Assembly: GCA_964558555.1 (NCBI GenBank)
Contig: CAZLEO010000008.1
Span: 61 to 64,060, forward strand
DNA: 64,000 nt
From: an uncultured Rickettsiales bacterium
GTDB lineage: Bacteria; Myxococcota_A; UBA796; UBA9615; CAYRNR01
Direction: 5' to 3'
Below are positions 12,501 through 29,427 of the stretch, piece after piece (the first letter of the stretch is position 1; every line of letters starts with the position of its first letter). The position numbers were made by a program, and so were the translations under genes. The notes under the pieces were generated by a model. The model was not told the DNA's origin, did not search any database, and saw only the letters and a program-made list of their open reading frames with translations.

Positions 12501-15107
12501 CCGTGCCCGCCGGTCGGCGTCGCGGAGGGCGTCCCCGGTCCAGACCTCGCTTGCCAGACGCCCGCGCCTCGCCCAGAGCTGGGCGGCCTGCGTCAGCTCG
12601 CTCGCGAACGCCCGGTCCGCGTGGCTCTCGTCGAGCCAGCGACGGAGCCGATCCCACTCTCCGACGAGGGACTCGTGGACCAGCTCGAGGGTGGCCTTCT
12701 CGTCCACGGATTCCTGTGCGCCGTCGCCACCTTCGGTCGCTACGCCATCGCCCCGGCTCCCCATCGATCGCTGGACGAGGACCAGTCTGCCCGTGACGAG
12801 CCGAACGAGCACGCCGCCAGCCTCCTCGGGTAGGTCCGCGAGCAGGTCGGAGCGAGTGACGACCCTTCTTGTCCCGTCGGGCCGCACCAGTCGCAGGAGG
12901 ATGTCCCGCGCCCACCCCAGCTGTTCTCCGTGCAGGCCGGCGAGGACGGCGTCGGCGTGGTGTGCCAGCGCGCCGGCCATGCCGCCCATGGACTCGTACT
13001 CACTGCGCAGCAACAGCCGAGCCTGGGTGTCGCGGTGGAGCCACAGGTGCTTGCCCACGACCTGTAGCAGCGGCAGCGCCGCGGCCTCGCCTCGGACGGC
13101 GTCGACCATCTCACCGACCAGGGCCGGGTCGTCGTAGGCATAGCCCGCGAGTTCGACGGGTCGGATGAGGATCTCCCGCAACCCCGCAGAGCCCGGAGGC
13201 CGTATCACAACCACCCGCGCCATCGCCGCCCGCGCGGCGGGGCCGATGGCGACGCGGGCGAGGAAGTCGTCGCGCAAGGTCGCGATCATCCGCACGGGGC
13301 CGTCGGGATCGTCGGCGGCGAGACAGATCGCCTCCATGAACACCCGGCGCTCGCGCTCGTCGTCCACCAGCGTGCACAGCTCCTCGAGCTGATCCACGAA
13401 CAACAGCACGCGGACCGGTCGGTCGTCCCCGGCGGCGGCTCCGAACGGGTCGCGAGTGGGCTGCGATCGGCCGGCGAACTCGCTCAGGCGCAACGCCAGC
13501 CTCGATGGGGATTCGTGAAGATCGCGGGCGAGCTCGGCGCGTAGCGCATCCACCTCCCCTGGAGTCGGCCGCCTGTGCGGCGTTGCCGGTCCGAGCTCTC
13601 CTTCGGTCGGCGGAATGCTCGAGCGGCTCGAACTCAGCGTCCACGTGCGTTCGTCCCCGGTCAGCAGCCGCTCGGCCAACGAACGCATCGGATCGCGCCC
13701 GGGCCGGAGCTGCAGCACGATCCAGCGACCCTGGTCCCGCAGCTTGGGGATGATCCCCGCCTGGACGAAAGAGCTCTTGCCGGATCCCGAGGCCCCCAGA
13801 ACGGCAATCGTCGACTCCTCGCGGAGACGCTCGAGGAGGGAGGCGATCTCCGCGTTCCTGCCGAAGAAGCGTTCAGCGTCCTTCTCCACGCAGGGCAGCA
13901 GCCCCCGGAAGGGGGGCTCCTCGACGGAGCGTCCCGTTCGCGCCACGGCGGCGAACTGCGCCAGTGACTCGGCGAGCTCGGAGATCGCGGGCCGTCGCCG
14001 GGGATCCCGGTCCATGCAGCGAGCCACGGTCTGGGCCAGCTGGGAGGGGAGCCCTTCCTCGTCCAGAGGAGCGAAGGGCTTGCGGGTGACCCGCATGGCC
14101 ATGGTCAGCCCGGGCATCCCCGCGAGAGGGTGCTCGCCGGCCAGCAGCTCGTACAGGATCATCCCCAACGCCCACACGTCCGTCGCGCTGCTGACGTCCT
14201 CTTCGAGCCACTGTTCCGGCGCCATGTACGGCGGCGTGCCCCGCAGACCCCGGGCGTGGGACTCGAACGTGCCCATCAGGTTGTCGTCCGTGGGCAGGGC
14301 CTGGGATCGGGCGTGCGGTTCCACACGCCCGGACTCCTCCACCGGCACGAGTTTGGCCAGACCGAAGTCCAGCACGCGCACGGTCCCGTCCTTGACGAGC
14401 ATCACGTTGTCGGGCTTGAGGTCCCGGTGGAGGATGCGGTGACGGTGCGCCTCGACCAGCGCCTCGGCGATGGCGAGCCCGATGCGGAGGATGTCTCGCA
14501 CGCCGACGCGCTCCTCGGTCATCCTCCTGCGCAGGGTCATCCCCTCCAGGTACTCGAGCGCGACGTATGGATTCTCTCCGTACTCACCCACCGCATGGAT
14601 GGTGACGATGTTGGGGTGATTGAATCTTGCGGTTGCACGCGCCTCGAATATGAACCTCTCGATGGCGCGCCGCGAGCCCATGTCCCGAGGCCGCAGGACT
14701 TTCAGCGCCACCTTTCGGCCGAGTCTCGTGTCCCGAGCCAGGTAGACCTCGCCCATGCCACCGCCGCCGAGTCGCCGCAGGATCTGGAGGTGGTCGACCC
14801 GCACACCGGGCTCCAGGGGCTGCGTCGGCGCTCCGGGTGGATCGAGTGCCCTCTCTCGGGCCGAGCCGCCACTGTCCACCTCGGTGTCGAAGGTGCCGGA
14901 CGCCTGCAGGCTCGCCGATAGGGACTGGCCGACGCTCCACAACAGGGTCCGCGCGTCGTGGATACCTGGGACGCTCTCCGGTTCCAGCTCCATCGCCTCG
15001 CGCAGCAACCGAGCACCCACCCGGCACTTCGGGCACGCGGAGAGGTGAGCCTGCACGGCCTCGGCCGGGGTGGGGTCGAGGAGCTCCTCGTCCGTACAGT
15101 GGCGCAT
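9507..15107 (-). CDS. Giant signalling protein of ~1867 aa. It has an N-terminal anti-sigma (zf-HC2) domain, a Ser/Thr protein kinase, a NACHT/AAA+ STAND ATPase, a transmembrane-like segment and ~14 WD40 repeats.
   Basis: N-terminus MRHCTDEELL...HLSACPKCR. Kinase motifs GGGGMGEVY, VALK, HRDLKPDN, DFGLAK. P-loop GASGSGKSS. Repeated WD motifs (LWD/IWD/VWD). The supplied 2391-aa ORF extends through the ECF gene in another frame; the real start, with signal-free ATG at 15105-15107, is placed 5 nt after the sigma stop. Confidence 0.8.
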   Translation of the reverse strand: MRHCTDEELLDPTPAEAVQAHLSACPKCRVGARLLREAMELEPESVPGIHDARTLLWSVGQSLSASLQASGTFDTEVDSGGSARERALDPPGAPTQPLEPGVRVDHLQILRRLGGGGMGEVYLARDTRLGRKVALKVLRPRDMGSRRAIERFIFEARATARFNHPNIVTIHAVGEYGENPYVALEYLEGMTLRRRMTEERVGVRDILRIGLAIAEALVEAHRHRILHRDLKPDNVMLVKDGTVRVLDFGLAKLVPVEESGRVEPHARSQALPTDDNLMGTFESHARGLRGTPPYMAPEQWLEEDVSSATDVWALGMILYELLAGEHPLAGMPGLTMAMRVTRKPFAPLDEEGLPSQLAQTVARCMDRDPRRRPAISELAESLAQFAAVARTGRSVEEPPFRGLLPCVEKDAERFFGRNAEIASLLERLREESTIAVLGASGSGKSSFVQAGIIPKLRDQGRWIVLQLRPGRDPMRSLAERLLTGDERTWTLSSSRSSIPPTEGELGPATPHRRPTPGEVDALRAELARDLHESPSRLALRLSEFAGRSQPTRDPFGAAAGDDRPVRVLLFVDQLEELCTLVDDERERRVFMEAICLAADDPDGPVRMIATLRDDFLARVAIGPAARAAMARVVVIRPPGSAGLREILIRPVELAGYAYDDPALVGEMVDAVRGEAAALPLLQVVGKHLWLHRDTQARLLLRSEYESMGGMAGALAHHADAVLAGLHGEQLGWARDILLRLVRPDGTRRVVTRSDLLADLPEEAGGVLVRLVTGRLVLVQRSMGSRGDGVATEGGDGAQESVDEKATLELVHESLVGEWDRLRRWLDESHADRAFASELTQAAQLWARRGRLASEVWTGDALRDADRRARRMSGLPHVAMEFLVVGSRQERARVRRRRSLLVAGFAALIALAAVLGWMNHRTARQRDLAQEGQATAMLEGARTANLRGDLLEARARLRNALETRDSATARALWWSLSRQPLVWHHELPAAPYDLAFSPDGGSVAVCRADGAVQVFDVSSGQSEILRDIDALYMAVAYSPDGRWLASGTSLGTVILRDLAGGDTRTVDTELGEINDLRFSADGASLGVVGWSERARIFHTDTGEARLDLVGHEDIAHTVDFDPRGRWIATASSDATVRLWDAATGAQIRALEGHSQRIHMVRFSPDGEQLASLGRDHVVKLWNPQTGELRLDLEGHTDILWGVSFSPDGRELATGGQDRAIHIWDVTTGELRRTVAGHDGWIRRVVFAPDGRHVASLSGRDQTVRLWDLDRTPAPTTARGHDSTVDGVAFSADGRWLLSSSYDGTVRIWDVETGEQLRSLAGPEDGFARVRVDPTGRRVVAAGLDGVVYLWDLDSGELLARSPARESGAYDVRFADGGDTLYSSGWSGEIHQWSLPAFERGLSLDTGGAGVWGIDVSPDGRLLAGAATDGKVHLWRIDGGRHMRAVDVGPWPVHVEFSEDGSHLAVSGEGDVLSILDTHGDGRVELRADTGLPHVNWTVTYHPDDQRVGVACGDGTAAVVPLDGSESTIMRGHLRDVVDLAFSPDGDWTATAGDEGTVRLWHTEDGRPAWWTRLMMDSPVELLTHRGWQRPDEPGSAPPSAAWRDHVQSDAVLAASHASHVCSYSEDGRLWIWDTAADRPHADDRAPPATALVAHAGGCAVLDAAGEVHTLSLDGRWTRALSGVSAISGDPEGVLAIADDRAHLLGTDGAQLSQWDVGTGLTAVHRVDGTSVQGYRDGAIAVRTSGASAHGPTLELEDLPSSPVTSLRTGPMDTLVAGFGNGTLGLWSLRDGARLHTEKLHGAVTHLRIDGPTLHAATELGDAQIVDLRTFERPYCDVVEDVWSSVPVVWRDGGPVVSDPAPDHPCKR

Positions 15108-15112
15108 GCCGC

Positions 15113-15748
15113 TCACCGGGTCTCCCACACGAAGGACGTGCCGTGGCCCAGCTGGGCCAGCCGGGCTTTCAGCTCGGCCTTGAGCTTGCGCCGGCAGCGC
15201 TGGAGCAGGCCGCGCGCGCCGGACGCGGTGGTCAGCCCGAGCAGGTCCGTGATCCGGTCCTGGGGCATCTGTTCGACGTAGCGCAGATACACCGCCTCTT
15301 GCTCCTGCTCCTCCAGCACGGCGGCAGCGGCGCTCCTGAGCAGCTCTTCGCGCTCTTGCCGCCCAAGAGCCGAGAGCGCCCCCTTCTCGTCGGAGGTCGG
15401 GTCGAGCAGACCGTCGACGGAAAGCAGGTCCTGCTTGCGCCGGAAAGCGCCATAGCAAACCCTCTTGGCGATGCCGTACAGCCACGTGCTGAAGGCGGAG
15501 TCCCCCCGGAACGTCGGGAGCCTGCGCCAGGCGGTCAGCAACGTCTCCTGGGCCAGGTCGCGCGCCTTCTCGGGGTCGCCGGCGAAGCGGTAGCAGATGG
15601 CGTAGACGCGGTCCTGATGGCGGGCGAAGAGCTGCTCGAGGTCGGCGGAGAGGGATGCAGAGGCGGACCCCTCGCCCTGCGCAACGAGCCGCACGCGCTT
15701 CAGCAGCGCCTCCTCGTCGCGAGCCTTGCGGTCCCCTGGCCTGTTCAT
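15113..15748 (-). CDS. ECF (sigma-70 family) RNA polymerase sigma factor.
   Basis: Region 2 (YAICYRFAGDPEKARDLAQETLLTAWRRL) and region 4 (EAVYLRYVEQMPQDRITDLLGLT). Confidence 0.85.
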   Translation of the reverse strand: MNRPGDRKARDEEALLKRVRLVAQGEGSASASLSADLEQLFARHQDRVYAICYRFAGDPEKARDLAQETLLTAWRRLPTFRGDSAFSTWLYGIAKRVCYGAFRRKQDLLSVDGLLDPTSDEKGALSALGRQEREELLRSAAAAVLEEQEQEAVYLRYVEQMPQDRITDLLGLTTASGARGLLQRCRRKLKAELKARLAQLGHGTSFVWETR

Positions 15749-17769: not shown

Positions 17770-18891
17770 TCAGGAGTCTTCCTCGTCTTCCTCGTCTTCC
17801 TCGCCGCCGCCTTGTTCGCAATCGGCCGGATCGGGACAGTACAGGAAGTAGCCGATCGCGCGCTGATTCAACTCGGTGTAGTAGTCCAGCACCCAGAGGT
17901 GGATGCGCGGTCCGATGGCCCTCGCCGCGACCATCTGGGCGTCCCCGTCGAGCGTGGTGTTGAGGGGAAGGAAGCCGCCGTGTTGCCGGTTCCACGCGTC
18001 GTCGCCGGGCCCCTTGGACGCCAGCCCTACGTACGAATCACTCACCGAGCGCACGTTGCCCTGGTCGATCCACTCGCCGAAGCCCACGTAGAACATGTAG
18101 TCGTGGTCGTCCAGTTCGACGATGGAGATGTCCACGAAACCCTCGTCGTCCCACTCGCCGTCGGAGCCTGCCTTGAACACGCGGGAAGCATCGACGGCCC
18201 AGTTCTCGGGATCGTCGGTGGAGAGCCGATACACGTTGATTGACCCCTCCTCGACGCTCCCCCCGAGGTAGGCATCGTAGTTGCTCGCGCCGATGTTCAG
18301 CGCCAGGGGCCACGCGTAGTCGACGCCCTCGTAGGTCAGGCCGAAGTCGATGACTGGATTGTTGGGGGACAGCTCCCAGTTCAACCCGTCGTGGGAGGCG
18401 GCCAGCCCGGCGCCGAAGAACGACTTGTCCTCGTCGATACCGCCGTAGAGCATGACGTAGCCGTCCATGTTCACGTCCCAGGCCACCTCCAGGGCCTGGA
18501 CCTTGCCCCCGTCCCAGTCGCTGTTCGAGCGCGAGGGCCAGCCCGGGTTGTCCGGGTGGGGGGTCCACTCGGTCCCGCTGTCGCTGATGGCGTAGCCCAT
18601 GTCGAAGTCACCGCCTTCACTGGGGGAGCCCGCGTACCACAGCTGGTAGAACGGGTGTCCGGCCACCTCGGTGTGCCCGAAGGTGCTGAACGACAGGGTC
18701 TCGGCCCAGTCCTCGCCGGTGGTGGTGAACACGGGATTGCAGTCGTAGCGGTACAGCTCGTCGATGGCCGTGGGCACGAAGGGACACTCGGTGACCTCGT
18801 CGGGGTGCACGTTCACCGCGTGGAGCTGATACTCGCTGCAGGCTGCCAGGCCCAGGCAGACCAGGGTGAGCGGTAGGACGGCCCTACTCAT
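17770..18891 (-). CDS. Lipoprotein, probably a beta-propeller (GH32/43/130-like or BNR-like fold); function unknown.
   Basis: Lipobox LTLVCLGLAAC. Repeated W/Y-G-G-x-D blades. Acidic C-terminal tail. 8-nt overlap (ATGAGTAG) with the upstream gene. Confidence 0.45.
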   Translation of the reverse strand: MSRAVLPLTLVCLGLAACSEYQLHAVNVHPDEVTECPFVPTAIDELYRYDCNPVFTTTGEDWAETLSFSTFGHTEVAGHPFYQLWYAGSPSEGGDFDMGYAISDSGTEWTPHPDNPGWPSRSNSDWDGGKVQALEVAWDVNMDGYVMLYGGIDEDKSFFGAGLAASHDGLNWELSPNNPVIDFGLTYEGVDYAWPLALNIGASNYDAYLGGSVEEGSINVYRLSTDDPENWAVDASRVFKAGSDGEWDDEGFVDISIVELDDHDYMFYVGFGEWIDQGNVRSVSDSYVGLASKGPGDDAWNRQHGGFLPLNTTLDGDAQMVAARAIGPRIHLWVLDYYTELNQRAIGYFLYCPDPADCEQGGGEEDEEDEEDS

Positions 18892-19204
18892 CGTCGTCCC
18901 CCTCTTCGTCGACGGCGTGGTCGGAGCCGCCGTAGGCCCTGGCGCATTGCAGGATCACGAATGCGTCGCATTCGGCGTCGAGCACGCACTCGGTCAGGGG
19001 AGCCACGGCCGCGCCCCGCTCGGCCTTGTCGTACATGCAGCCGTCGTAGCAGGACCCGGGCTGGTCCGCGGGGAAGGCCTCGAACTGGCATTCGTCCACC
19101 AGCTCGTTGCACAGGTCCGTGCAGAGACCTTCCGAGTCCACGTTACAGCCCAGTGGGGTCGAGAGAAGCCCCAGTACCCCCAGGAGAAACAACGTCCGTC
19201 GCAT
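18884..19204 (-). CDS. Small Cys-rich lipoprotein (106 aa).
   Basis: MRRTLFLLGVLGLLSTPLGC. GGAGGG Shine-Dalgarno sequence. 10 Cys residues in 80 aa. Confidence 0.5.
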   Translation of the reverse strand: MRRTLFLLGVLGLLSTPLGCNVDSEGLCTDLCNELVDECQFEAFPADQPGSCYDGCMYDKAERGAAVAPLTECVLDAECDAFVILQCARAYGGSDHAVDEEGDDDE

Positions 19205-19352: not shown

Positions 19353-20288
19353 GTGAGATCACGACGGTGGATCGAACGCACGGTGTGGGTGATCGCGTGC
19401 TGTCTCGCCGCGGCGTCCTCGCCTGCATGGGCCGAGGACGTGCCGCTGAAGATCAAGTTCTCGTCGCCGCGAGGTGGATCGTGGAATGGGCACCGCCTCG
19501 CCGTGGCCTTCGACGACCGGCGGTCGTCGCACCTCGGCGGCGGCACGGCCGACGTGATGGGCGTGGTGGGTGAGAACAAGGAAGTGACGCTGGTTCTCAA
19601 GCGGCTCACCGTCGAGGACGTGTTCTACGAACTGACCGAGGATGCGCTGAATGCCGCGGGCTTTCGTGCAGTCCAGGGGCGAGAAGACGGCCTTCCCACG
19701 CTGCTGGTGGTCCTGGAGGACCTCGAGGTGGAGGGCTTCACCGAGTACACGGTGAGCCTGTACCTGGAGTTCGAGCTGCTCTCGTCCGGGGACGAAGAGC
19801 TGCTGTGGGACGGCTCGGCAGCAGCCGAAGGAGAGGTGCGGCTCCAGTGGGGGGTCGGAGAGCTGTGGAAGGGCTACCGGGGGGCGTTCGAGGAGGCCCT
19901 GGACATCATGACTCGCCACTTCGAGAGCTCGGAGTTCCTCGAAGGACTGCCCGTCCAGAGCGAGCCTGCTGCCGTCGTCGAGGACGTCGTCGAGGACGTC
20001 GTCGAGGAGGCGCCGGTGGTGACCCCGCCCGTTGAACCCGTCGACACTCCGCTCCTGGCGGTGGTGCAGACGTACTACGCCTACCAGGGCACGACGATGA
20101 CCGACGATCAGCGCGAGGCGGGCGAGGACGCCGTGCGTCAGCTCCTGGCAGAGGGATTCGTCGCAGCCGGGCTGGAGAGGGCCGTGGTCCAGGTCCACCG
20201 GGAGATCCCCGGAGCCAGGACCATGGACTTCGAGCGCATCGTCCCCGCCTACGTGCGGGCGATGGGAGACACGTTCAAGGGACCGTAG
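19353..20288 (+). CDS. Secreted protein; paralogue P1 carrying an unrecognised ~70-aa C-terminal YY-x-QG...REIPGA domain.
   Basis: GTG start after GGGGG. Signal VRSRRWIERTVWVIACCLAAASSPAWA. The C-terminal domain is shared with P2 and P3. Confidence 0.5.
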   Translation: MRSRRWIERTVWVIACCLAAASSPAWAEDVPLKIKFSSPRGGSWNGHRLAVAFDDRRSSHLGGGTADVMGVVGENKEVTLVLKRLTVEDVFYELTEDALNAAGFRAVQGREDGLPTLLVVLEDLEVEGFTEYTVSLYLEFELLSSGDEELLWDGSAAAEGEVRLQWGVGELWKGYRGAFEEALDIMTRHFESSEFLEGLPVQSEPAAVVEDVVEDVVEEAPVVTPPVEPVDTPLLAVVQTYYAYQGTTMTDDQREAGEDAVRQLLAEGFVAAGLERAVVQVHREIPGARTMDFERIVPAYVRAMGDTFKGP

Positions 20289-20294
20289 GTCGGA

Positions 20295-21200
20295 TCAGAA
20301 GCGTGCGTGCAGGGTGAAGCCGGCGCTACGTGGGGTGAGCGCAGGTAGCACGGTCACCTGCGGGCGGTGGGTGTCCAGGTGGCTCCGGCGCCGGCTGTCC
20401 CGCTTGGGCGCGGCTGCTCCGACGATGATCAGCGTGATCCCTGCGACCTCCAGCACGGTCAGCGCCACGGCAAAGGGGACGTAGTAGTCGGTCACCGCCT
20501 GGCTGCACTCGGTCCCGCCCCAGTAGGCGTGGGAGGCGCCGGGGCCGATGATCGGGATCGCGCCGATCAAGGGGGCGCCGCCCGGCCAGAAGTTGCAGGC
20601 GTATCCGTGGGAGACGCCCAGAGCCATGCCGCCGATCATCCCACCGCCGAGCAGTCCGATTCCCGTGCCGATGAGTGCGTTCTTCTGCTTCTTCTTCAGG
20701 CCCTTGGGAGAACGGGATCTGCGGCGGGGCTCCTCGTCGATGTCGGCCACGGTGCGGGGCTGTTGCTCGGGTTCGTCCTCCGGCTCGACTTCCACCACGG
20801 GCTCGGTCTCGACTACGGGCTCGGTCTCGACTACGGGCTCGGTCTCGACTACGGGCTGAGGCGCCACCCACGCGGCCTTCCCACGGATCTGGGCGGAGCG
20901 CTCGTACGCCCAGCCCGGGACCACCTGCTCGAAGGGCGCCCAGGCCGCCGTCGGGTTTTCGCGGACGAGGTGGATCAGGGCACTCTCGAGTTGCTCGCGC
21001 GAGAATCCGGCATCGAACAGATCCAGGGCCGCCGGGATCCCGTCCACGAGCTGTCGAGCCGTGGCGTCGAGGCCCTGGAAGGTGTAGTAGGCCTCGACCA
21101 GCCTCGCGGCGTCCGTGGTGTCGGACGCCCGGGCCCCGGAGGCGGGGAGGAGCAATACGACCAGCAATCCCCATCGCGCGGCGGCCAGGATGACGTCCAT
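20295..21200 (-). CDS. Membrane protein, paralogue P3. Signal peptide, shared N-terminal domain, (EPVVET)x4 linker, then a Gly-zipper transmembrane C-terminus.
   Basis: GGGGAGGAAGG Shine-Dalgarno sequence. MDVILAAARWGLLVVLLLPASGARA. C-terminus LIGTGIGLLGGGMIGGMALGVSHGYACNFWPGG... Confidence 0.55.
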   Translation of the reverse strand: MDVILAAARWGLLVVLLLPASGARASDTTDAARLVEAYYTFQGLDATARQLVDGIPAALDLFDAGFSREQLESALIHLVRENPTAAWAPFEQVVPGWAYERSAQIRGKAAWVAPQPVVETEPVVETEPVVETEPVVEVEPEDEPEQQPRTVADIDEEPRRRSRSPKGLKKKQKNALIGTGIGLLGGGMIGGMALGVSHGYACNFWPGGAPLIGAIPIIGPGASHAYWGGTECSQAVTDYYVPFAVALTVLEVAGITLIIVGAAAPKRDSRRRSHLDTHRPQVTVLPALTPRSAGFTLHARF

Positions 21201-21215
21201 GAGCCTTCCTCCCCT

Positions 21216-22166
21216 CTAGAAAGCGACCGACATCATCAACACCGCGGGACCCTCCGTCGAGGCGGGGAGCACGGCGGTTGTCGGAGTCCAGCGCCGCGGC
21301 GTCTGCCCCACGGCCTCGCTCACCGCCAGGGCCTGATCCCACTTCGGCCGCACCGACAGCAGGTTGATCCCCTCGAGGACCAGCACCGTCGCGCCGGCGA
21401 TCACACCGCCGATGAGGGGCAACGTCCAGGCGCCGATGCCCAGGGCGATGCAGATCCCCGTGAGCGTCCAGGAACCCGCCATGTGCTTCTTCACCGGTCG
21501 ATAGCCCGCCCTCACGTACGCTCCGTGCTTGTCGGCCATGGCGATCGTGCCGATGATCGAACCTAGGGTGGTGAAGGTGGAGCCGATGACCATCACCAGC
21601 CCCACGACGCCGAAGCCGGCGCTGCTGGCCGCCGTGGAGGCCAGGAAGGTCGCGTAGCCCACGAGGTCGAAGATGGCGCAGGTGACGAGCCCGCCGCGCC
21701 CCCGTGCCCGGAGCCTGGCCGCCTCGGTGGTCGGCGGCGGCATCACCGGGGTCAGGGTCGTGTTCATGCGGGTCGAGGTCGCGGTGGCCGGAGCGCGGGT
21801 TTCCGGCGTCACGACCGCGGCTGTACCCGGCGTGGCCGTGGCGCGCACGAACGGTGGGAAGATCAGCTCGAAGGCCCCTGTCGCGGCCCCGGGGATCTCG
21901 CGGTGAACCTGGACCACGAGGTCGGTCATCGTGTCGACGTCGTATCCCGCGGCCATCAGCTCCAGGGCAGCCATCAGCCCCGCGTCCCGTTGTTCGTCGC
22001 CGACCTCGGTCGTGCCCTGCATGACGTAGTAGAGATCCACGACGCCCAGGGCGTCGTCGGTCACCGAAGCCCATACCCCTCCAGGGACGGCCAGGATCAG
22101 GCCCAGCGCCAGGGCGGTCAGGAGTCGGCCTCGGCGCTGGACAGGACTGTACGGAAGAGCATGCAT
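21216..22166 (-). CDS. Membrane protein, paralogue P2, with the same architecture as P3.
   Basis: Signal MHALPYSPVQRRGRLLTALALGLILAVPGGVWA. Domain VVDLYYVMQGTT...VVQVHREIPGAATGAFELIFPPFVRA. Gly-rich TM region GVIAGATVLVLEGINLL. Confidence 0.55.
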   Translation of the reverse strand: MHALPYSPVQRRGRLLTALALGLILAVPGGVWASVTDDALGVVDLYYVMQGTTEVGDEQRDAGLMAALELMAAGYDVDTMTDLVVQVHREIPGAATGAFELIFPPFVRATATPGTAAVVTPETRAPATATSTRMNTTLTPVMPPPTTEAARLRARGRGGLVTCAIFDLVGYATFLASTAASSAGFGVVGLVMVIGSTFTTLGSIIGTIAMADKHGAYVRAGYRPVKKHMAGSWTLTGICIALGIGAWTLPLIGGVIAGATVLVLEGINLLSVRPKWDQALAVSEAVGQTPRRWTPTTAVLPASTEGPAVLMMSVAF

Positions 22167-22234: not shown

Positions 22235-23587
22235 CTAGTCCACGCAGCGCAACCAAACGTTGTACTGGTCGTCGTTGCCGTAGACGACCCAGGCGCGTCC
22301 CTCGTCGTCCACCGTCACGTCGGAGAACAGCCAGTCCTGAGAGTCCAGCGTCCAGGTGTCGTATTGACCAGCTCGAAAGTCGTCCTCGATGTAGTACGCG
22401 ACGTCGTTGTCGTGGACGTAGGTGAAGTGACCCAGTTCGCCTTCCGAGAAGGCGGCCCCGCCCAGCCAGGAGAACCCGTTGTAGGGGAGGGTGGGGAAGG
22501 TCGAGCTGGAGGACCAGCTGTCGTTGTCGCACCAGTTGCGCTTGACCACGGCGTCCTCCTCCCAGCTGTCCTGGTGGTGGTAGAGCACGTAGGGCTCACC
22601 GCCGTACCTCGATCCTGCCCCGACGAAACCGCTGGGGTCCGAGTCGATCACCTGGGTGGACGTGAAGGAGGCGTCGGACACGTCGAACACTCGGCTGACG
22701 ATGCCGTCGGGGTCGTTGACGATGAGGACGAGTTCGTCGTTGGACCTGCATGAAAGGGCGAGGTCGCTGATCGAGTCGGCCTCGTAGAAGTAGCCATCCC
22801 AGTCACCGTTGTCCGGGACGTAGAAGTGGAGCGTATCGTTCGCGACCCAGCCGACGAACGGCTGGTCCGCCGGGCCGGGTGAGCAGATATCGAGGCCGTC
22901 CACGTAGTAGCTGGACTCGTTCACCCACTCGTCGTAGGCCCAGCTCGTCTCCGAGGTGTTCGTCGGGTAGATCCACAGGATGCGGTTGGAGTACGCGTAG
23001 GTGAGGATGTGGGGGGTTCCGCTGGCATCCAGCCACAGCTTCATGCTGTCGCCGGTGTGGACGTGCCCTTCGGGAACGGTGTCCACGTCGTCGAGCAGGT
23101 CGAGCGACTCGTCGAAGGTGCGATAGGCGATGTGATCGTCCTCTGTGGTCTGACCGCCGTAGCTCCAGGCGAAGGCGGTCTTCAACAGCCGGTCCTCCTC
23201 GTCGAAGAGGATGTCCACGACGGCGGTCTCCTGCCCTCCCGCGTTGAACGAGGCGATGAGCCCTTCGTCGTTGTCCCCGTCGGCGCAGTCCTCGTCCACC
23301 CCGTTGCAGGGGATCTCCGTTGCCCCGGGGTGGATGTTGGGGTTGCTGTCGTTGCAGTCGCCACCGGCTTCGGTCCAGCCGTCCCCGTCGGCGTCCGTGA
23401 CGGCATCGTCGTCGTCGCCGACCTGGTCGTCGTCGTCGCCGACCTGGTCGTCGTCGTCGTCAGAGACGAAGTCGTCGTCGTCCCCCTTCGTGTCGTCGTC
23501 GTCCCCGAGAGGGACAGGGGCGCAGCTGGCCAACAGCATGGAGGATGCGGTGAACAGTGAGATCCAGATGGGCGCACGTGTGAACAT
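22235..23587 (-). CDS. Lipoprotein with a poly-Asp linker and a MopE-type putative metal-binding motif.
   Basis: Lipobox MLLASC. DDDDTKGDDDDFVSDDDDDQVGDDDD linker. DGDGW..GGDCNDSNPNIHPGATEIPCNGVDEDC motif. Confidence 0.6.
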   Translation of the reverse strand: MFTRAPIWISLFTASSMLLASCAPVPLGDDDDTKGDDDDFVSDDDDDQVGDDDDQVGDDDDAVTDADGDGWTEAGGDCNDSNPNIHPGATEIPCNGVDEDCADGDNDEGLIASFNAGGQETAVVDILFDEEDRLLKTAFAWSYGGQTTEDDHIAYRTFDESLDLLDDVDTVPEGHVHTGDSMKLWLDASGTPHILTYAYSNRILWIYPTNTSETSWAYDEWVNESSYYVDGLDICSPGPADQPFVGWVANDTLHFYVPDNGDWDGYFYEADSISDLALSCRSNDELVLIVNDPDGIVSRVFDVSDASFTSTQVIDSDPSGFVGAGSRYGGEPYVLYHHQDSWEEDAVVKRNWCDNDSWSSSSTFPTLPYNGFSWLGGAAFSEGELGHFTYVHDNDVAYYIEDDFRAGQYDTWTLDSQDWLFSDVTVDDEGRAWVVYGNDDQYNVWLRCVD

Positions 23588-23714: not shown

Positions 23715-23801
23715 TCAGCCGCCGGCCGGCGCGCAGACCATCGGGTTGATCACGAACACGTACAGCGCCGCGAGGGCGATCAGGCCGGCGAGGCCGGCCA
23801 T
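23715..23801 (-). CDS. Candidate 28-aa hydrophobic small protein (MAGLAGLIALAALYVFVINPMVCAPAGG).
   Basis: The ATG is 18 nt downstream of the ICMT stop. GAAGGAG lies 12 nt upstream. One predicted TM helix. Confidence 0.3.
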   Translation of the reverse strand: MAGLAGLIALAALYVFVINPMVCAPAGG

Positions 23802-23818
23802 GTAGAGGCCGAACTCCT

Positions 23819-24418
23819 TCACTTGCGGCTCCTCTCGGCGAAGTAGCGTCGGAAGCGGCTGAACCTGGGGATGAACATCGGCACCTCCTTGCGGTAGCGC
23901 TCGTAGGCCTCGCCCAGGTTCTGCAGGCAGTAACGCTCCTGGATGGCGACGTTGGTGATGTACGAGTACAGCAGCAGGATGGGGATGAAGATCGCCAGGA
24001 ATGCCAGCGACCGCATCAGGAAGCCCAGACCGATCACGCCGATGAGCTTGCCGATCACGGAGGGGTGGCGGATCCAGGAGTAGATGCCGGTGTCGACGAG
24101 GTTGGTGGTGTAGCCCATGTGGGAGCCGGGGCTGCCGGCGCCCTTGAGGTAGAGGTAGCCGTAGGAGTACCACACGACAAAGCCGCCGAGGGCCCAGCAG
24201 CCGGCGCAGATCACCACGTTCCAGGGCAAGCCCACGGTGGGGGCCCAGCCCCAGGACTGGTCCAGGCGCTGGGCGAACCACGCCAGCAAGGTGGCCGCGG
24301 GCACGAGCACGAAGACGTGGACCGCCATGTTGCCGTACAGCTCCTTGTGGCGGAGCGTGGCGAAGATCTCCCAGACAGTGGGTTCGCGGTCCACGGGCTG
24401 TGGGGATTCGTTGGTCAT
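23819..24418 (-). CDS. Membrane methyltransferase of the ICMT / phospholipid methyltransferase family (SrsB-like).
   Basis: Five TM helices. The C-terminal EYERYRKEVPMFIPR motif is typical of isoprenylcysteine carboxyl methyltransferase-family enzymes. Confidence 0.7.
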   Translation of the reverse strand: MTNESPQPVDREPTVWEIFATLRHKELYGNMAVHVFVLVPAATLLAWFAQRLDQSWGWAPTVGLPWNVVICAGCWALGGFVVWYSYGYLYLKGAGSPGSHMGYTTNLVDTGIYSWIRHPSVIGKLIGVIGLGFLMRSLAFLAIFIPILLLYSYITNVAIQERYCLQNLGEAYERYRKEVPMFIPRFSRFRRYFAERSRK

Positions 24419-24428
24419 GAATGGGACA

Positions 24429-25880
24429 CTATATCTTAGATTGACCGGCCTTTAGCAGCTCCATGCGGCCGAGCTGGAACCCGCCGAGCAGCACGTTCTT
24501 GAGCTCGGCGCGGGTGCGGATCTTGGAAAACGTCCGCGCCAGCGTGCGCGGATGGAAGTAGAAGGCCCGGTTGACCTTCTTGAACAGCTCGAGCAGTTCC
24601 TCCTTGGACAGGTGCTCCTCCCAGGCGGTGGGCAGGTCGTAGCCCTCGTCCGGATCGAGCATGAACCGTTCCCAGCAGTCCGCCGGCCACAGCCCCTTGT
24701 CGGTGCCCTCGGCGAAGATGGGGGCGTCGGGGTAGGGGGTGAACAGGGAGTACACGACGTAGTCGGGGGCCAGGTCGTGCATGAACGGGATCACGTCGAG
24801 GATCTGCTGGGCGTTCTCCTCGTGGGGGTTGCCCATGATCATGTAGGCGATGGCCTTGACCCCCTCGGACTGGGTCATGCGGAAGATGTCCTTGATCTCC
24901 GCCACCGTGGCCTTCTTGTTGAGCGCCTTGAGGCCGTGGTCGGTGAAGGTCTCCACCCCGTAGTGCATGCGGTAGCAGCCGGCGCGCTTGGCCAGCTTGA
25001 CCATCTCGCGGGTGGTCTGGCGGATGGACGCCTTGTACCCCCACCAGATCTTGAGGTTGCGCTGCAGGATCAGCTCGCTGATGGCCATGACCCGCTCGGG
25101 CGAGGCGTTGAACAGGTCGTCGACGAAGTGGATGTCCTGGATGCCGTGGCGGTGCACGCACTCGGCCATCTCGTCCACCACGCGCTCGGGGCTGTGGGGG
25201 CGGTAGGCGTGGGGCACGTTGCAGAACACGCAGCGGTGGGGGCAGCCGCGCGAGGACATCATGGTGGTGGTGTGGGCGCCGCGCATGCCCGGGGTGTAGT
25301 ACCTGCCCGGGGGGAAGAAGTCGCGGTCGGGGAAGGGCAGGGTGTCCAGGTCGTGGGTGGGGTCGCCCTTCTCGCCCTGGTAGACGCTGCCGTCCTCGCG
25401 CTGGATGACGATGGAGGGCACCGTGTCGATGTCGCCGCCCTCCTCGAGGGTGTCCAGCAGCTGCACCAGCGGCTTCTCGCCGTCGCCCTGGATGCACGCG
25501 TCCACGCCGCGCAGCCGCGCGCCGATCTCCGGGAACGAGGTGACGTGGGCGCCGCCCATGACCACGAACACGTCGGGCAGCACGCGCTTCACCGCGTCGA
25601 TGCAGCGGGCCACGTTGATGAGGTTGTGCGAGGCCGTGGCCGACACGCCCACCACGTCGGGGCGGACGCGGGCCGCGTGGGCCTCGATGTCGCCAAAGCT
25701 CATGTCCTCGACCACGCAGTCCAGGGTGTGGACCTCGTGATGGGAGTGCTCCTTGAGCCACGCCGACAGGCTCATCACGGCCAGGGGTGGGAACAGGTAG
25801 GCGTACTTGTCGTTGAACACCGACGGCACGCCCGCCCACACCTGGTAGGTCTTGGGGGGATGGATCAGCAGGATGCGCAC
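24429..25880 (-). CDS. B12-binding radical SAM enzyme.
   Basis: N-terminal cobalamin-binding Rossmann region (RILLIHPP...). CPHRCVFC radical SAM cluster motif. A GTG start at 25880 is preferred over the ATG at 25940, which would overlap the upstream gene by 76 nt. Confidence 0.75.
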   Translation of the reverse strand: MRILLIHPPKTYQVWAGVPSVFNDKYAYLFPPLAVMSLSAWLKEHSHHEVHTLDCVVEDMSFGDIEAHAARVRPDVVGVSATASHNLINVARCIDAVKRVLPDVFVVMGGAHVTSFPEIGARLRGVDACIQGDGEKPLVQLLDTLEEGGDIDTVPSIVIQREDGSVYQGEKGDPTHDLDTLPFPDRDFFPPGRYYTPGMRGAHTTTMMSSRGCPHRCVFCNVPHAYRPHSPERVVDEMAECVHRHGIQDIHFVDDLFNASPERVMAISELILQRNLKIWWGYKASIRQTTREMVKLAKRAGCYRMHYGVETFTDHGLKALNKKATVAEIKDIFRMTQSEGVKAIAYMIMGNPHEENAQQILDVIPFMHDLAPDYVVYSLFTPYPDAPIFAEGTDKGLWPADCWERFMLDPDEGYDLPTAWEEHLSKEELLELFKKVNRAFYFHPRTLARTFSKIRTRAELKNVLLGGFQLGRMELLKAGQSKI

Positions 25881-26578
25881 GGTTCGCTCTTTCTCGCGGG
25901 GTGGTTGACCCGCTCGCACCGGACCAGGTCCAGGTGCCACACCAGCATGGGCTTGCCGTAGAAACGGAAGCGGCCGGCGCGCTCGAAGCCCCAGGAGGTC
26001 AGCTGGCGCACGGCGCCGGCGTTGTCCTCCTCGGTGGTGATCTTGACGTGATCGTGGCCGCGCGCGGCCAGCTCGTCGAAGAGCACCTTGTTGATCAGCC
26101 CGGCCACCTTTTTACCCCGCAATCCCGGCTCGAACGAACAAAACATGGACTCCGCCTTCACGTCGGGGCCCTCGTCGGTCCGCGTGAGGGTGTGGTAGCG
26201 GAAGGTCTCGGCCAGGGGCAGGGCCGCGCCGGGGCGCCCCACGAGGCCGCGCGCGGTGGACAGGGCCAGGGCCGGAGCGTGACGCGTGAACGTCTCGCGT
26301 AGCATGCGCGGTCCGTCCTCCGTCCCCGCGATGAACCCCTGCACGCGCCCGTCGTCCACGAAGACCCAGGCCAGGAAGTCGGGGTGCTCCAGCAGGGCCT
26401 TGTAGATACGCGCGAGGAACCGCGGCCCCAGCTGGGCCCACAAGGAGTGACCCATGGCCGCGGTGTGCAGGCGGACCACCCCGGGGACGTGGGCCCGGTT
26501 CATCCGGTGGATGCGGGCCCGCACCTCGGGGTCGACGGGGAAGGGCGCGAGGCGCCCGTTCGGGGACGGCTCGGCCAA
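25865..26578 (-). CDS. GNAT-family N-acetyltransferase.
   Basis: Acetyl-CoA-binding motif (AARGHDHVKITTEEDNAGAVRQLTSWGFE). TTG start, 2 nt after the crotonase stop. Confidence 0.65.
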   Translation of the reverse strand: MAEPSPNGRLAPFPVDPEVRARIHRMNRAHVPGVVRLHTAAMGHSLWAQLGPRFLARIYKALLEHPDFLAWVFVDDGRVQGFIAGTEDGPRMLRETFTRHAPALALSTARGLVGRPGAALPLAETFRYHTLTRTDEGPDVKAESMFCSFEPGLRGKKVAGLINKVLFDELAARGHDHVKITTEEDNAGAVRQLTSWGFERAGRFRFYGKPMLVWHLDLVRCERVNHPARKSEPCASC

Positions 26579-26580
26579 GC

Positions 26581-27351
<771 letters not shown>

Positions 27352-27370
27352 GGAATCCTCCCCAGAGGGG

Positions 27371-28435
27371 TTACCAGCGAAGCAGGCCGGTCTCGATGGA
27401 GATGCCCGGGCCCATGGCGATGGTCACGCCGTAGTCCCCGGCGTGCACCACGTCCTCGTGCTTGAGCTCCTGGAAGGAGAACAGGAACGCGCCCGACGAC
27501 AGGTTGCCGTAGTCGCGCAGGATGGACTTGGTGTGGCGCACGTCGTGCTCGGTCAGGCCAAGGTTGTACTTGATGGCGTCGATGACCTTCTTGCCGCCGG
27601 AGTGGATGATCCAGTGGCGGATGTCGCGCTGTTTGAGGCCGTTGTCCTTCAGCAGCTTGCCCACCGGGGTGTTGATGGTCTCGCCGATGAGGTAGGGGAT
27701 GTCGCGGCCGAGGTAGAAGCTGAACTTGCCCTCCTCGAAGTCGAACCGCATCTCGGCCATGGCGTGGGCGACCATGATCGACTCGAAGCCCAGCACCTGG
27801 GGGCCCTCCGCCGCGGTGAGCTCGTCGCCCGACACCAGCAGCACGGCCGCCGCGCCGTCGCCGAACAGGGAGTTGACCACGCCGGTGCGCACGGTCATGT
27901 CGAACACGTAGGCCGCCGAACACACCTCGCAGGTCAGCAGCAGGGCCGGCTTGCCCGGGTTGGCTGCGGCGAACGAGGTGGTGGCCATCAGGCCGTTCAT
28001 GCCGCCGTTGCAGCCCATGCCCACCAGGTCGATGCGGTGGACGTTGTCGCGCATGCCCGAGTCGCGGGCGATCATGGCCGACAGGCCGGGGCACAGGAAG
28101 CCGGTGGAGGTGACCACGGCGAAGAACTCGATGTCCTCGGGGCCGTAGGGGCTGTCCTTGAGGCACCGCTCGACCGCCTCGCAGCCGATGGTGATGGAGA
28201 CGTCGGTGTGCTTGCCCAGCAGCTCCTCGCCGCTCTCGTCGGGCATGATCCCGTCCTCGCCGGGATCGGGCAGCACCAGGTGGCGGGTCTTGATGTGGGA
28301 GTTGGTGAAGAACCGCCGGATGATCTTCACCTCGCACTGGAACAGGTCGAGCAGCTCGGCCTGCGTGTAGCGGCGCGGCGGGTTGGCGGTGCCCACCGAC
28401 AGGATTCGGGGAGCGAGCGGGCGTTCCATGGCCAT
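27371..28435 (-). CDS. Type III polyketide synthase (chalcone/stilbene synthase superfamily).
   Basis: Cys-His-Asn catalytic triad contexts (GMGCNGG, IHSGGKKV, GNLSSG). GAGAGG Shine-Dalgarno sequence. Confidence 0.85.
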   Translation of the reverse strand: MAMERPLAPRILSVGTANPPRRYTQAELLDLFQCEVKIIRRFFTNSHIKTRHLVLPDPGEDGIMPDESGEELLGKHTDVSITIGCEAVERCLKDSPYGPEDIEFFAVVTSTGFLCPGLSAMIARDSGMRDNVHRIDLVGMGCNGGMNGLMATTSFAAANPGKPALLLTCEVCSAAYVFDMTVRTGVVNSLFGDGAAAVLLVSGDELTAAEGPQVLGFESIMVAHAMAEMRFDFEEGKFSFYLGRDIPYLIGETINTPVGKLLKDNGLKQRDIRHWIIHSGGKKVIDAIKYNLGLTEHDVRHTKSILRDYGNLSSGAFLFSFQELKHEDVVHAGDYGVTIAMGPGISIETGLLRW

Positions 28436-28653
28436 GGTCCTACCTCTCGTCGGGCGGCTCGCGAGCGTCGGAGCGCAGCCCAGGCATTCTCTATAGCCTA
28501 GGTTCGTCCATCGCCAGGAGGAATGCCGCGCCCGAGTCGCCGCATTATAGCATCAGGGTTCCGGGTCGCCCCCCCCTCGAAAGCCAGCGATATCGCTGGC
28601 TTGACATCGGTAGGGGTGGTCTCTACGGTGCCGGAGGAAGAACGGAGCACACC
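28436..28653. promoter_or_regulatory. Divergent intergenic control region. A perfect 20-bp palindrome AGCCAGCGATATCGCTGGCT (28582-28601) abuts a sigma70-like -35 TTGACA (28601-28606). A TACGGT -10 follows at 17-nt spacing.
   Basis: Read directly from the sequence. The predicted transcription start is ~18 nt upstream of the PP-loop gene ATG at 28654. Confidence 0.5.
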
Positions 28654-29427
28654 ATGGCCCCCAAGCCCGATCGAAGCGACGGCGACCGCAGGATGGCCCT
28701 GTTGTTCTCCGGTGGCCTGGACACCACGCTGGAGGTGGTCGAGCGGCTCAAGGAGTACGACGCCGTCGATCTACTCACCTTCGACAACGGCTACTGCATC
28801 AACATGCGCGGCGCGCGCCGGCGCGTGCGCGAGCTGCGCGACCTGCTGGGTCCAGACCGCATCCACCACGTGGAGGTCGAGACCAAGGAGCTCATCGACA
28901 TCCTGCTGCGCGACGGCGACCAGCTGTGGCGCGAGTACCGATCCCCGCTGATCTTCGACATGGCCTGCAAGGTGTCCTCCGTCACCGAGCTCATCTACTA
29001 CGCCCGCACCCACGGCATCACCGATCTGAGCGACGGCGCCGCGCTGGAGCAGACCGAGATCTTCTTGCAGCACCGCGACTTCTCCGCCGAGGTCAAGCCG
29101 TACCTGGAGAGCTACGGGCTGGTCTACCGCGAGGCCATCCAGTACGAGTGGTCCCGCGACGAGAAGCAGCGGATGATCGAGCAGCAGGGCCTGAGCTCCG
29201 GCGTGCCCTTGCTCGAGAAGTTCTCCATCGGCAGCCACATCGCCCACCAGCCGTTCTGCCTGCGCGGCGCCGTCACCTTCTTCTTCACCTCGCCGACCCG
29301 CCACCTCGGTCCGGTCAAGCGCTACGCCCTGCCCATGAACCGCGCCATCGCCCTGTGGAAGCGGCTGCTGCCCACGGCGAAGGACTACCTGGACGAGCGG
29401 TTGCGGGGGGCGGGGATCGAGGTCTAG
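28654..29427 (+). CDS. PP-loop ATP pyrophosphatase superfamily protein (QueC/ExsB-like).
   Basis: LFSGGLDTT PP-loop (SGGxDS-like). LLTFDNGYC resembles QueC's ITFDYGQRH. The QueC C-terminal Zn-Cys motif is absent. Confidence 0.55.
   Translation: MAPKPDRSDGDRRMALLFSGGLDTTLEVVERLKEYDAVDLLTFDNGYCINMRGARRRVRELRDLLGPDRIHHVEVETKELIDILLRDGDQLWREYRSPLIFDMACKVSSVTELIYYARTHGITDLSDGAALEQTEIFLQHRDFSAEVKPYLESYGLVYREAIQYEWSRDEKQRMIEQQGLSSGVPLLEKFSIGSHIAHQPFCLRGAVTFFFTSPTRHLGPVKRYALPMNRAIALWKRLLPTAKDYLDERLRGAGIEV

Follow-up and report, generated by a model that had tools for sequence, protein, structure and literature searches.

The stretch of DNA analysed here, hereafter the window (64,000 nucleotides of contig CAZLEO010000008.1 from an uncultured Rickettsiales bacterium), carries three adjacent genes, P1, P2 and P3, whose products share a domain of about 75 amino acids (aa) that we call the head. 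The head is a new domain, unrecognised in every protein-family and structure library searched. All three proteins begin with a Sec-type signal peptide, as read from their sequences. P2 and P3 continue through the head and a spacer into C-terminal membrane anchors of two types, B and A, respectively, and P1 is an anchorless head paralogue. P2 and P3 lie on the same strand, separated by 15 nt, and P1 converges on P3 with 6 nt separating the stop codons (Table 1).

P2, the exact protein sequence of which is found on five public contigs, runs from its signal peptide (..GVWA/S) through the head, a Pro/Thr-rich spacer and four hydrophobic segments to a tail ending ..VAF. P3 comprises a signal peptide (ARA/S), the head, an (EPVVET)n spacer, a basic cluster and a glycine-zipper transmembrane helix (TM1), followed by a P..G.IP..GP segment, a second transmembrane helix (TM2) with an invariant Glu, another basic cluster and a β-hairpin tail ending ..ARF. 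The (EPVVET)x4 spacer reported in the original prediction for this DNA is real and is encoded by a perfect tandem repeat. P1 is built from a signal peptide (..SPAWA/ED), an α/β N-domain of about 170 aa, an acidic spacer and a C-terminal head; its cluster holds four near-identical proteins, and public gene callers begin it at 19383, giving 301 aa (loci L001/L002).

The shared head domain and its family

That the three neighbours are paralogues sharing one domain is borne out by BLASTP with compositional adjustment: the segment of about 75 aa common to P1 and P2 is 53% identical (E=1e-16), and the same segment gives E=6e-11 between P2 and P3 and E=3e-8 between P1 and P3. A profile hidden Markov model (HMM) of the head matched P1, P2 and P3 only among the six-frame open reading frames (ORFs) of the 64-kb window. 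Because the compositionally adjusted alignments are joined by this window scan, we regard the paralogy as real and the similarity as more than low complexity.

The statement that the domain could not be recognised held up as well. P1 and P2 had no match in Pfam-A, NCBIfam, PHROGs or PADLOC, and in the same libraries P3 gave only matches of its low-complexity spacer, far below the cut-offs. The 16 type A proteins and eight further family members (five of type B, P0010, P0021 and P0005) had no Pfam match. In AlphaFold2 models built from family alignments, the head folds into five compactly packed helices with a predicted local distance difference test (pLDDT) score of 95-98 (97-98 in P1 and 95-97 in P3, whose head helices span residues 22-41, 48-63, 68-81, 83-86 and 90-100). 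Foldseek found no match for the head in the PDB with either the P3 or the P1 model, and nothing for it when the P1 model was searched against BFVD.

A 24-sequence head profile searched against PDB sequences gave marginal matches only, confined to the central 30-40 columns: DotG/IcmE repeats, the three CW_7 repeats of Cpl-7 (5i8l), and, over 29-39 of the 79 profile positions, the Cbl UBA domain (E=1.8e-3) and RuvA domain III (E=9e-3). These matches share a G-x6-L-x2-(A)G(Y/F)-x4-hydrophobic pattern of helix, turn and helix; neither UBA nor RuvA domain III was among the Foldseek matches of the P1 and P3 models. The central helix-turn-helix of the head is likewise matched by the repeats of Legionella DotG/IcmE and of two long proteins, P0012 and P0025 ('LLxKGYSxxELAxxL', 'AGFSxxxLxxAG'), and the motif common to all of these may be an ancient repeat unit. 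P0012 (1035 aa) and P0025 (1149 aa) themselves were rejected as family members, being repeat proteins that match the 'GY(S/T)..EL' motif only.

The family is small. When the HMM was run on all 1.84 billion representative proteins, clustered at 50% identity, it returned 25 matches, two of which were discarded, leaving about 23 members. Homologue searches by word index gave nothing or the query itself only for the three heads and the P1 N-domain, and two members only for the type A alignment, so that the exhaustive HMM search was needed to find the family; type B patterns had no match in GTDB species genomes or JGI metagenomes. All recovered loci have 62-73% GC and come from metagenomes or metagenome-assembled genomes of high-GC uncultured bacteria. 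For one of them, CAZOYV010000132.1 (L015/L013), which carries the family member P0003 together with TPR, MlaDEF and transglutaminase genes, the label 'uncultured Rickettsiales bacterium' looks unreliable at 72.6% GC; a genome scan with a single protein recovered this contig alone.

Members usually start with a Sec-type signal peptide, which has a basic n-region and an AXA-like site, and continue through the head and a spacer to a C-terminal membrane anchor. All members except fusion forms open with a signal-peptide-like segment directly before the head, and the spacer is of low complexity, rich in Pro, Glu and Ala, and very variable in length (about 20-130 residues). Departures from this plan are P0010, with a β-rich C-terminus instead of a helical anchor, P0021, with a 330-aa N-terminal extension, and P0005, truncated by a contig end, whose single chain combines a P1-N-like fragment with a head and a type A anchor; through this fusion the extra P1 domain is connected to the anchored forms. 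The variable partner that had been suggested is partly borne out, in a sense other than that of a polymorphic system: the family joins the head to at least four different modules, C- or N-terminal.

Every top Foldseek PDB match of the P1 N-domain is to a periplasmic lipoprotein fold (2iqi, 4kwy, 4hrv, 2n8x, 4q6l and 7rxu), including DUF330/PqiC-like proteins (2iqi, 4kwy), GNA1162, LptE and LpoB. On the strength of this model the domain is possibly LptE/PqiC/LpoB-like; it had no match to PDB sequences in a profile search and none in Pfam.

Two membrane anchors encoded by paired genes

The anchored members fall into two types. In type A (P3-like), a basic cluster precedes a Gly-rich TM1 and an invariant P..G.IP..GP segment; next come another helix, in which a Glu is conserved, another basic cluster and a tail whose last residues are ..(G/A)RF. 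Glu251 is invariant in the six aligned core type A members, and a variant subgroup has Gln in place of the conserved Glu. In type B (P2-like), four hydrophobic segments, in which Asp167 and Glu265 are invariant, precede a tail with Phe as its last residue. In the P3 model, the anchor helices at residues 170-201 and 234-263 reach pLDDT >=90. Searching PDB sequences with profiles of the complete type A and B alignments yielded nothing for the anchors.

Both anchors are Gly-rich (13-15% Gly) and end in a short predicted β-hairpin tail with an aromatic residue, but they have no detectable homology (hhalign probability 0.9%, E=0.06, 21 columns). The likeness between the P2 and P3 C-termini is therefore a resemblance, and the HG(Y/A)-containing, Gly-rich membrane C-terminus that had been described as conserved between them is not a conserved feature; HG(Y/A) is conserved in neither family. 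Of the two glycine-zipper anchors originally proposed, one stands: P3 has four overlapping [GAS]xxxGxxx[GAS] motifs in TM1 and six GxxxG in all, whereas P2 has none of the former and two of the latter. The Pfam glycine-zipper models match neither protein at E<=1.

Charge and C-terminus bear on topology. The type A membrane region is 82-89 aa long (85-89 in 15 of 16 members) and holds 0-4 Lys/Arg, flanked by about five Lys/Arg before it and about five after it; charge maps of type B show the same flanking pattern on inspection. Since the signal peptide exports the head, the basic residues, being on the same side as the head, would lie in the periplasm, and an inner-membrane location would violate the positive-inside rule. 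The C-terminal residue is Phe or Trp in all 22 anchored A and B members, with mostly hydrophobic residues at positions -4 and -6 and usually Gly or Ala, not an aromatic, at -2 (..G/A-R-F). The β-signal of outer-membrane proteins (OMPs) is a C-terminal aromatic after alternating hydrophobics, typically Y/F-x-F; the aromatic end after the predicted hairpin recalls it, with Gly/Ala at -2.

The genes for the two types go together. A type A gene directly follows the type B gene in each of the seven independent B loci examined (the window, L005, L011, L012, L016, L017 and L018), at a spacing of about -11 to +27 nt. No neighbourhood feature other than this B-then-A pair is conserved throughout the family. 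Comparing P2 and P3 with their orthologues in the closest relative, L005, we found fractional identities of 0.79 and 0.65, respectively, in the head, 0.69 and 0.75 in the anchor, 0.57 and 0.55 in the tail, 0.41 and 0.49 in the spacer, and 0.36 and 0.52 in the signal peptide. On these identities, purifying selection acts on head and anchor alike. Conserved anchors behind divergent spacers run contrary to polymorphic toxins, which are hypervariable at the C-terminus.

Neighbouring genes

The genes around P1, P2 and P3 mostly encode lipoproteins. Together with the three signal peptides and the two C-terminal anchors behind Pro/Glu spacers, this agrees with the envelope-interaction role suggested in the original prediction. 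Upstream of P2, on the same strand and 68 nt before it, lies the gene for an Asp-rich lipoprotein with a MopE-type metal-binding motif, whose N-terminal (G)DDDD run is encoded by 21/24-bp tandem repeats; similar acidic low-complexity ends or starts occur on several neighbouring exported proteins, one of which ends ..EEDEEDEEDS. L005 retains the MopE-B-A order, in a block that lies in reverse orientation to its flanks, and loci less closely related do not retain it. P1 is not present in the 21-kb L005 locus, and none of the genes of the P1-bearing block was called in the matching L005 interval. That block, between the B-A pair and a gene for an extracytoplasmic function (ECF) sigma factor, includes the lipoprotein ending ..EEDEEDEEDS, which weakly matches a GH130-type β-1,2-mannobiose phosphorylase model (E=0.0015). 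Small, Cys-rich, acidic lipoproteins (90-185 aa, no Pfam match) adjoin head-family genes in several differing loci, and this could reflect either lineage background or a real association.

The ECF sigma factor gene (Sigma70_r2) is followed by one for a Ser/Thr kinase of about 1870 aa with nSTAND and WD40 domains, and the same pairing adjoins the L005 locus; no shared ECF-type promoter was visible upstream of the MopE-P2-P3 unit when the window and L005 were compared. Directly beside this unit is a cluster for a type III polyketide synthase, an enoyl-CoA hydratase, a 237-aa protein, a B12-binding radical SAM enzyme and a PEMT/ICMT-like methyltransferase, which looks like a lipid or alkyl-phenol modification cluster. 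The end of the methyltransferase gene is overlapped by 4 nt by a 35-aa hydrophobic ORF, VKEFGLYMAGLAGLIALAALYVFVINPMVCAPAGG, which is conserved in L005 and so probably encodes a genuine small membrane protein. In the distant L017, too, there is a B12 radical SAM gene near the B-A pair, two genes upstream of it. A functional link of the pair to this gene is unproven, as the two enzymes are 28% identical and other loci have none. P0024 overlaps the end of a gene for a 118-aa FHA-domain protein by 4 nt, a context unique among the loci. Rfam had no match in the window.

Table 1 Positions of the head genes, their parts and nearby features
Feature	Position in window	Strand	Details and positions at other loci
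P1	19353..20288	+	311 aa from GTG 19353; translation
P1 spacer repeat, coding VVED repeats	19973..20008	+	12-bp x3 perfect tandem repeat; Tandem Repeats Finder
P1 head	20049..20276	+	Residues ~233-308; BLASTP, AlphaFold2, HMM match 7.6e-30
P3	20295..21200	-	Type A, 301 aa; translation, family alignment, AlphaFold2
P3 membrane anchor and tail	20298..20720	-	Residues 161-301; hydropathy, AlphaFold2
P3 spacer repeat, coding (EPVVET)	20797..20857	-	18-bp x3.4 tandem repeat; Tandem Repeats Finder score 122, 100% matches
P3 head	20886..21125	-	Residues 26-105; BLASTP against P2 and P1
P2	21216..22166	-	Type B, 316 aa; translation, family alignment
P2 membrane anchor and tail	21219..21698	-	Residues 157-316; hydropathy, alignments
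P2 head	21837..22067	-	Residues 34-110; BLASTP, HMM
Asp-rich lipoprotein, MopE-type metal-binding motif	22235..23587	-	Pfam PF11617, E=3.9e-9
(G)DDDD-coding repeats of this gene	23406..23503	-	
Small Cys-rich lipoproteins	18884..19204	-	L005 6683-6955, 7095-7490; L018 3201-3578, 5708-6226; L012 5322-5876
Lipoprotein ending ..EEDEEDEEDS	17770..18891	-	
ECF sigma factor and Ser/Thr kinase	9507..15748	-	
35-aa ORF VKEFGLYMAGLAGLIALAALYVFVINPMVCAPAGG	23715..23822	-	L005 10965-11072
Polyketide synthase/radical SAM/methyltransferase cluster	~23819..29000	-	L001 3738-8348
B12 radical SAM gene upstream of a distant pair			L017 4036-5484
P0024 with FHA-domain gene			L008 9648-10933

A possible envelope complex and its rivals

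We tentatively propose a model, possible though short of an even chance, in which P2 and P3 are two subunits of a rare envelope complex, a membrane-anchored periplasmic tether or scaffold, with P1 as a soluble accessory paralogue. Each protein would be exported by its Sec signal peptide and would carry at its mature N-terminus, in the anchored forms, the compact five-helix head that is predicted, joined by a flexible Pro/Glu-rich spacer of about 20-130 residues to a C-terminal helical anchor. This anchor would have both ends on the periplasmic side and finish in the predicted short β-hairpin ending in Phe. P2 and P3 would co-assemble through their Gly-rich helices with the invariant, putatively buried carboxylates, and the A/B assembly would extend two heads into the periplasm on long tethers, where they might dock on a common envelope partner or on each other; P1 could be recruited to the same docking site or compete for it. 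The charge distribution and the aromatic C-terminus incline us slightly to insertion from the periplasm, into the outer membrane more probably than the inner. If the tether model is true, a poorly known group of high-GC uncultured bacteria has a tether that spans the periplasm and is made from a new protein fold and two new families of membrane anchor, and the practical impact would be limited by rarity, at about 23 clusters in the representatives searched. The charge topology of this tether, at odds with the positive-inside rule that usually holds for helical membrane proteins with signal peptides, would make it useful for testing how diderm bacteria allot helical segments to one or the other of their two membranes.

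Several observations weigh against this model. Neither membrane assignment is comfortable, as an inner-membrane topology with a cleaved signal peptide puts about 10-15 Lys/Arg in the periplasm, and by a crude hydrophobicity sum the anchor helices fall in the range of real inner-membrane helices such as that of TonB and are well above the SlyB zipper in hydrophobicity, which favours retention in the inner membrane. Buried invariant carboxylates are typical of inner-membrane complexes. The hairpin tail of P3 (residues 281-300) is modelled at pLDDT 54-69 only. Co-assembly of A and B is suggested by gene adjacency only, and second head genes are missing from the available flanks of P0003, P0024 and P0010 (HMM-scanned) and of P0004 (gene table only); variant type A members likewise have none in the DNA available. 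There is no homologue with an assigned function. As for P1, its N-domain is modelled at pLDDT 24-73, and its Foldseek matches are weak (E 0.07-1, probability <=0.97, root-mean-square deviation 3.1, 66 columns).

The hydrophobic, carboxylate-bearing helices could instead belong to an ion-coupled transducer of the inner membrane, in which buried Asp/Glu of the A and B helices sense protons or ions and the spacer and head relay force or signal across the periplasm, as in a reversed TonB/TolA. We consider this unlikely. The length and fair, near-TonB hydrophobicity of the helices (by the same crude sum) would suit it, as would the invariant intramembrane D167 and E265 of type B and E251 of core type A and the TonB-like (EP)n spacer, the only NCBIfam match of P3 being TonB, over the spacer alone (E=0.0019); stator pairs such as ExbB/ExbD and MotA/MotB are two-gene modules with differing numbers of transmembrane helices, which also counts in its favour. 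However, cleavage of the signal peptide would leave every Lys/Arg cluster periplasmic, against the positive-inside rule, variant type A members have Gln for Glu, no head-family protein has a Pfam match to ExbB, ExbD, TolQ, TolR, MotA or TonB_C, and none of these is among the genes called next to the pair in the window, L005, L012, L017 or L018. The head-spacer-anchor architecture would suit wall-to-membrane staples like OmpA, Pal or Lpp, with the head as a peptidoglycan-binding module related to CW_7/UBA-like three-helix bundles, an explanation that we regard as very unlikely. It draws on the weak central matches to Cbl UBA and RuvA domain III given above and to CW_7 of 5i8l, for which E=1e-4 is summed over three repeats, whereas the single repeats have insignificant independent E values of 18, 20 and 140. 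An Arg of the CW_7 binding groove (Arg223/271/319) is fully conserved and required for muropeptide binding (PMC5705596), and its position, Ala in the crystallised 5i8l mutant, aligns with an Ala-dominated column of the head. CW_7 membership fails on this ground, and we rejected it also for the insignificant single repeats and for the lack of any Pfam CW_7 or PG_binding match and of any Foldseek match of the head in the PDB, which does contain CW_7 structures. As DotG/IcmE repeats score still better than CW_7, the match reflects a generic 'aGYs..dL' helix-turn motif.

Finally, the original prediction raised a polymorphic system, which would here mean bacteriocin-like toxins with a conserved N-terminal delivery domain and variable, membrane-inserting, pore-forming glycine-zipper C-terminal toxin domains. 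A conserved N-terminal domain is indeed joined to at least three unrelated C-terminal membrane modules, insertion from outside would account for the 'positive-outside' charge, and some membrane-damaging toxins have glycine-zipper helices (for example, PMC12955049). We find it highly improbable nonetheless. Between close relatives the anchors are 69-75% identical, against 41-49% for the spacers, and so are not hypervariable; the head is common to both paired genes; there is no consistent small downstream immunity gene, P3 being followed in the window by the convergent P1; no components of type I or type VI secretion systems, contact-dependent inhibition or Rhs systems lie nearby by Pfam and gene tables; and PADLOC and toxin families gave no match.

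A bolder idea is that types A and B may form a new heteromeric class of α-helical anchor, inserted from the periplasm, most plausibly into the outer membrane, via an OMP-like hairpin ending in Phe and carrying a new periplasmic docking fold on long tethers, or, as the mirror image, a carboxylate-dependent, reversed TonB-like transducer in the inner membrane. This we think quite unlikely. If true, such an anchor class would be a previously unseen way to link the outer membrane with wall or inner-membrane partners.

The proposed P2/P3 complex resembles known envelope systems in parts. Like TonB and TolA, P2 and P3 combine a membrane anchor, a long Pro/Glu-rich spacer and a small globular end domain, and the spacer match of P3 to the TonB model covers residues 112-173 with 18 bits against a cut-off of 265; their chain polarity is reversed, however, with the signal peptide and head N-terminal and the anchor C-terminal, the anchor has 2-4 hydrophobic segments and a β-hairpin tail, and there is neither a TonB_C or TolA domain nor an ExbBD/TolQR partner. 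The 2TM glycine-zipper domain is defined by GxxxG-type repeats (bioRxiv 10.64898/2025.12.22.696046), and P3 TM1, with its GxxxG/[GAS]xxxGxxx[GAS] repeats in a predicted same-side helical hairpin, recalls the outer-membrane lipoproteins SlyB, YfgH, OsmB and YiaD of this kind (Pfam Rick_17kDa_Anti and Gly-zipper families). In contrast to these, P2 and P3 have no match to the Pfam models and no lipobox, their signal peptides being of the signal-peptidase-I type without Cys at +1, their helices are more hydrophobic (on the crude scale mentioned above), P2 has no zipper motif, and the second helix of P3 is rich in Ile, Leu and Val with a buried Glu. With CW_7 (Cpl-7) and UBA-like bundles the head shares the helix, (A)G(Y/F) turn and helix of its centre, but it is a domain of about 75 aa with five helices, has Ala for the essential Arg, and gives marginal scores and no Foldseek match. 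P1 is likened to the LptE, PqiC (DUF330) and LpoB lipoproteins by the top Foldseek matches of its model, and differs from them in having no plausibly placed lipobox and no sequence-level match. By analogy, then, the complex might work like the TonB/TolA or OmpA/Lpp envelope tethers while being a member of none of these families.

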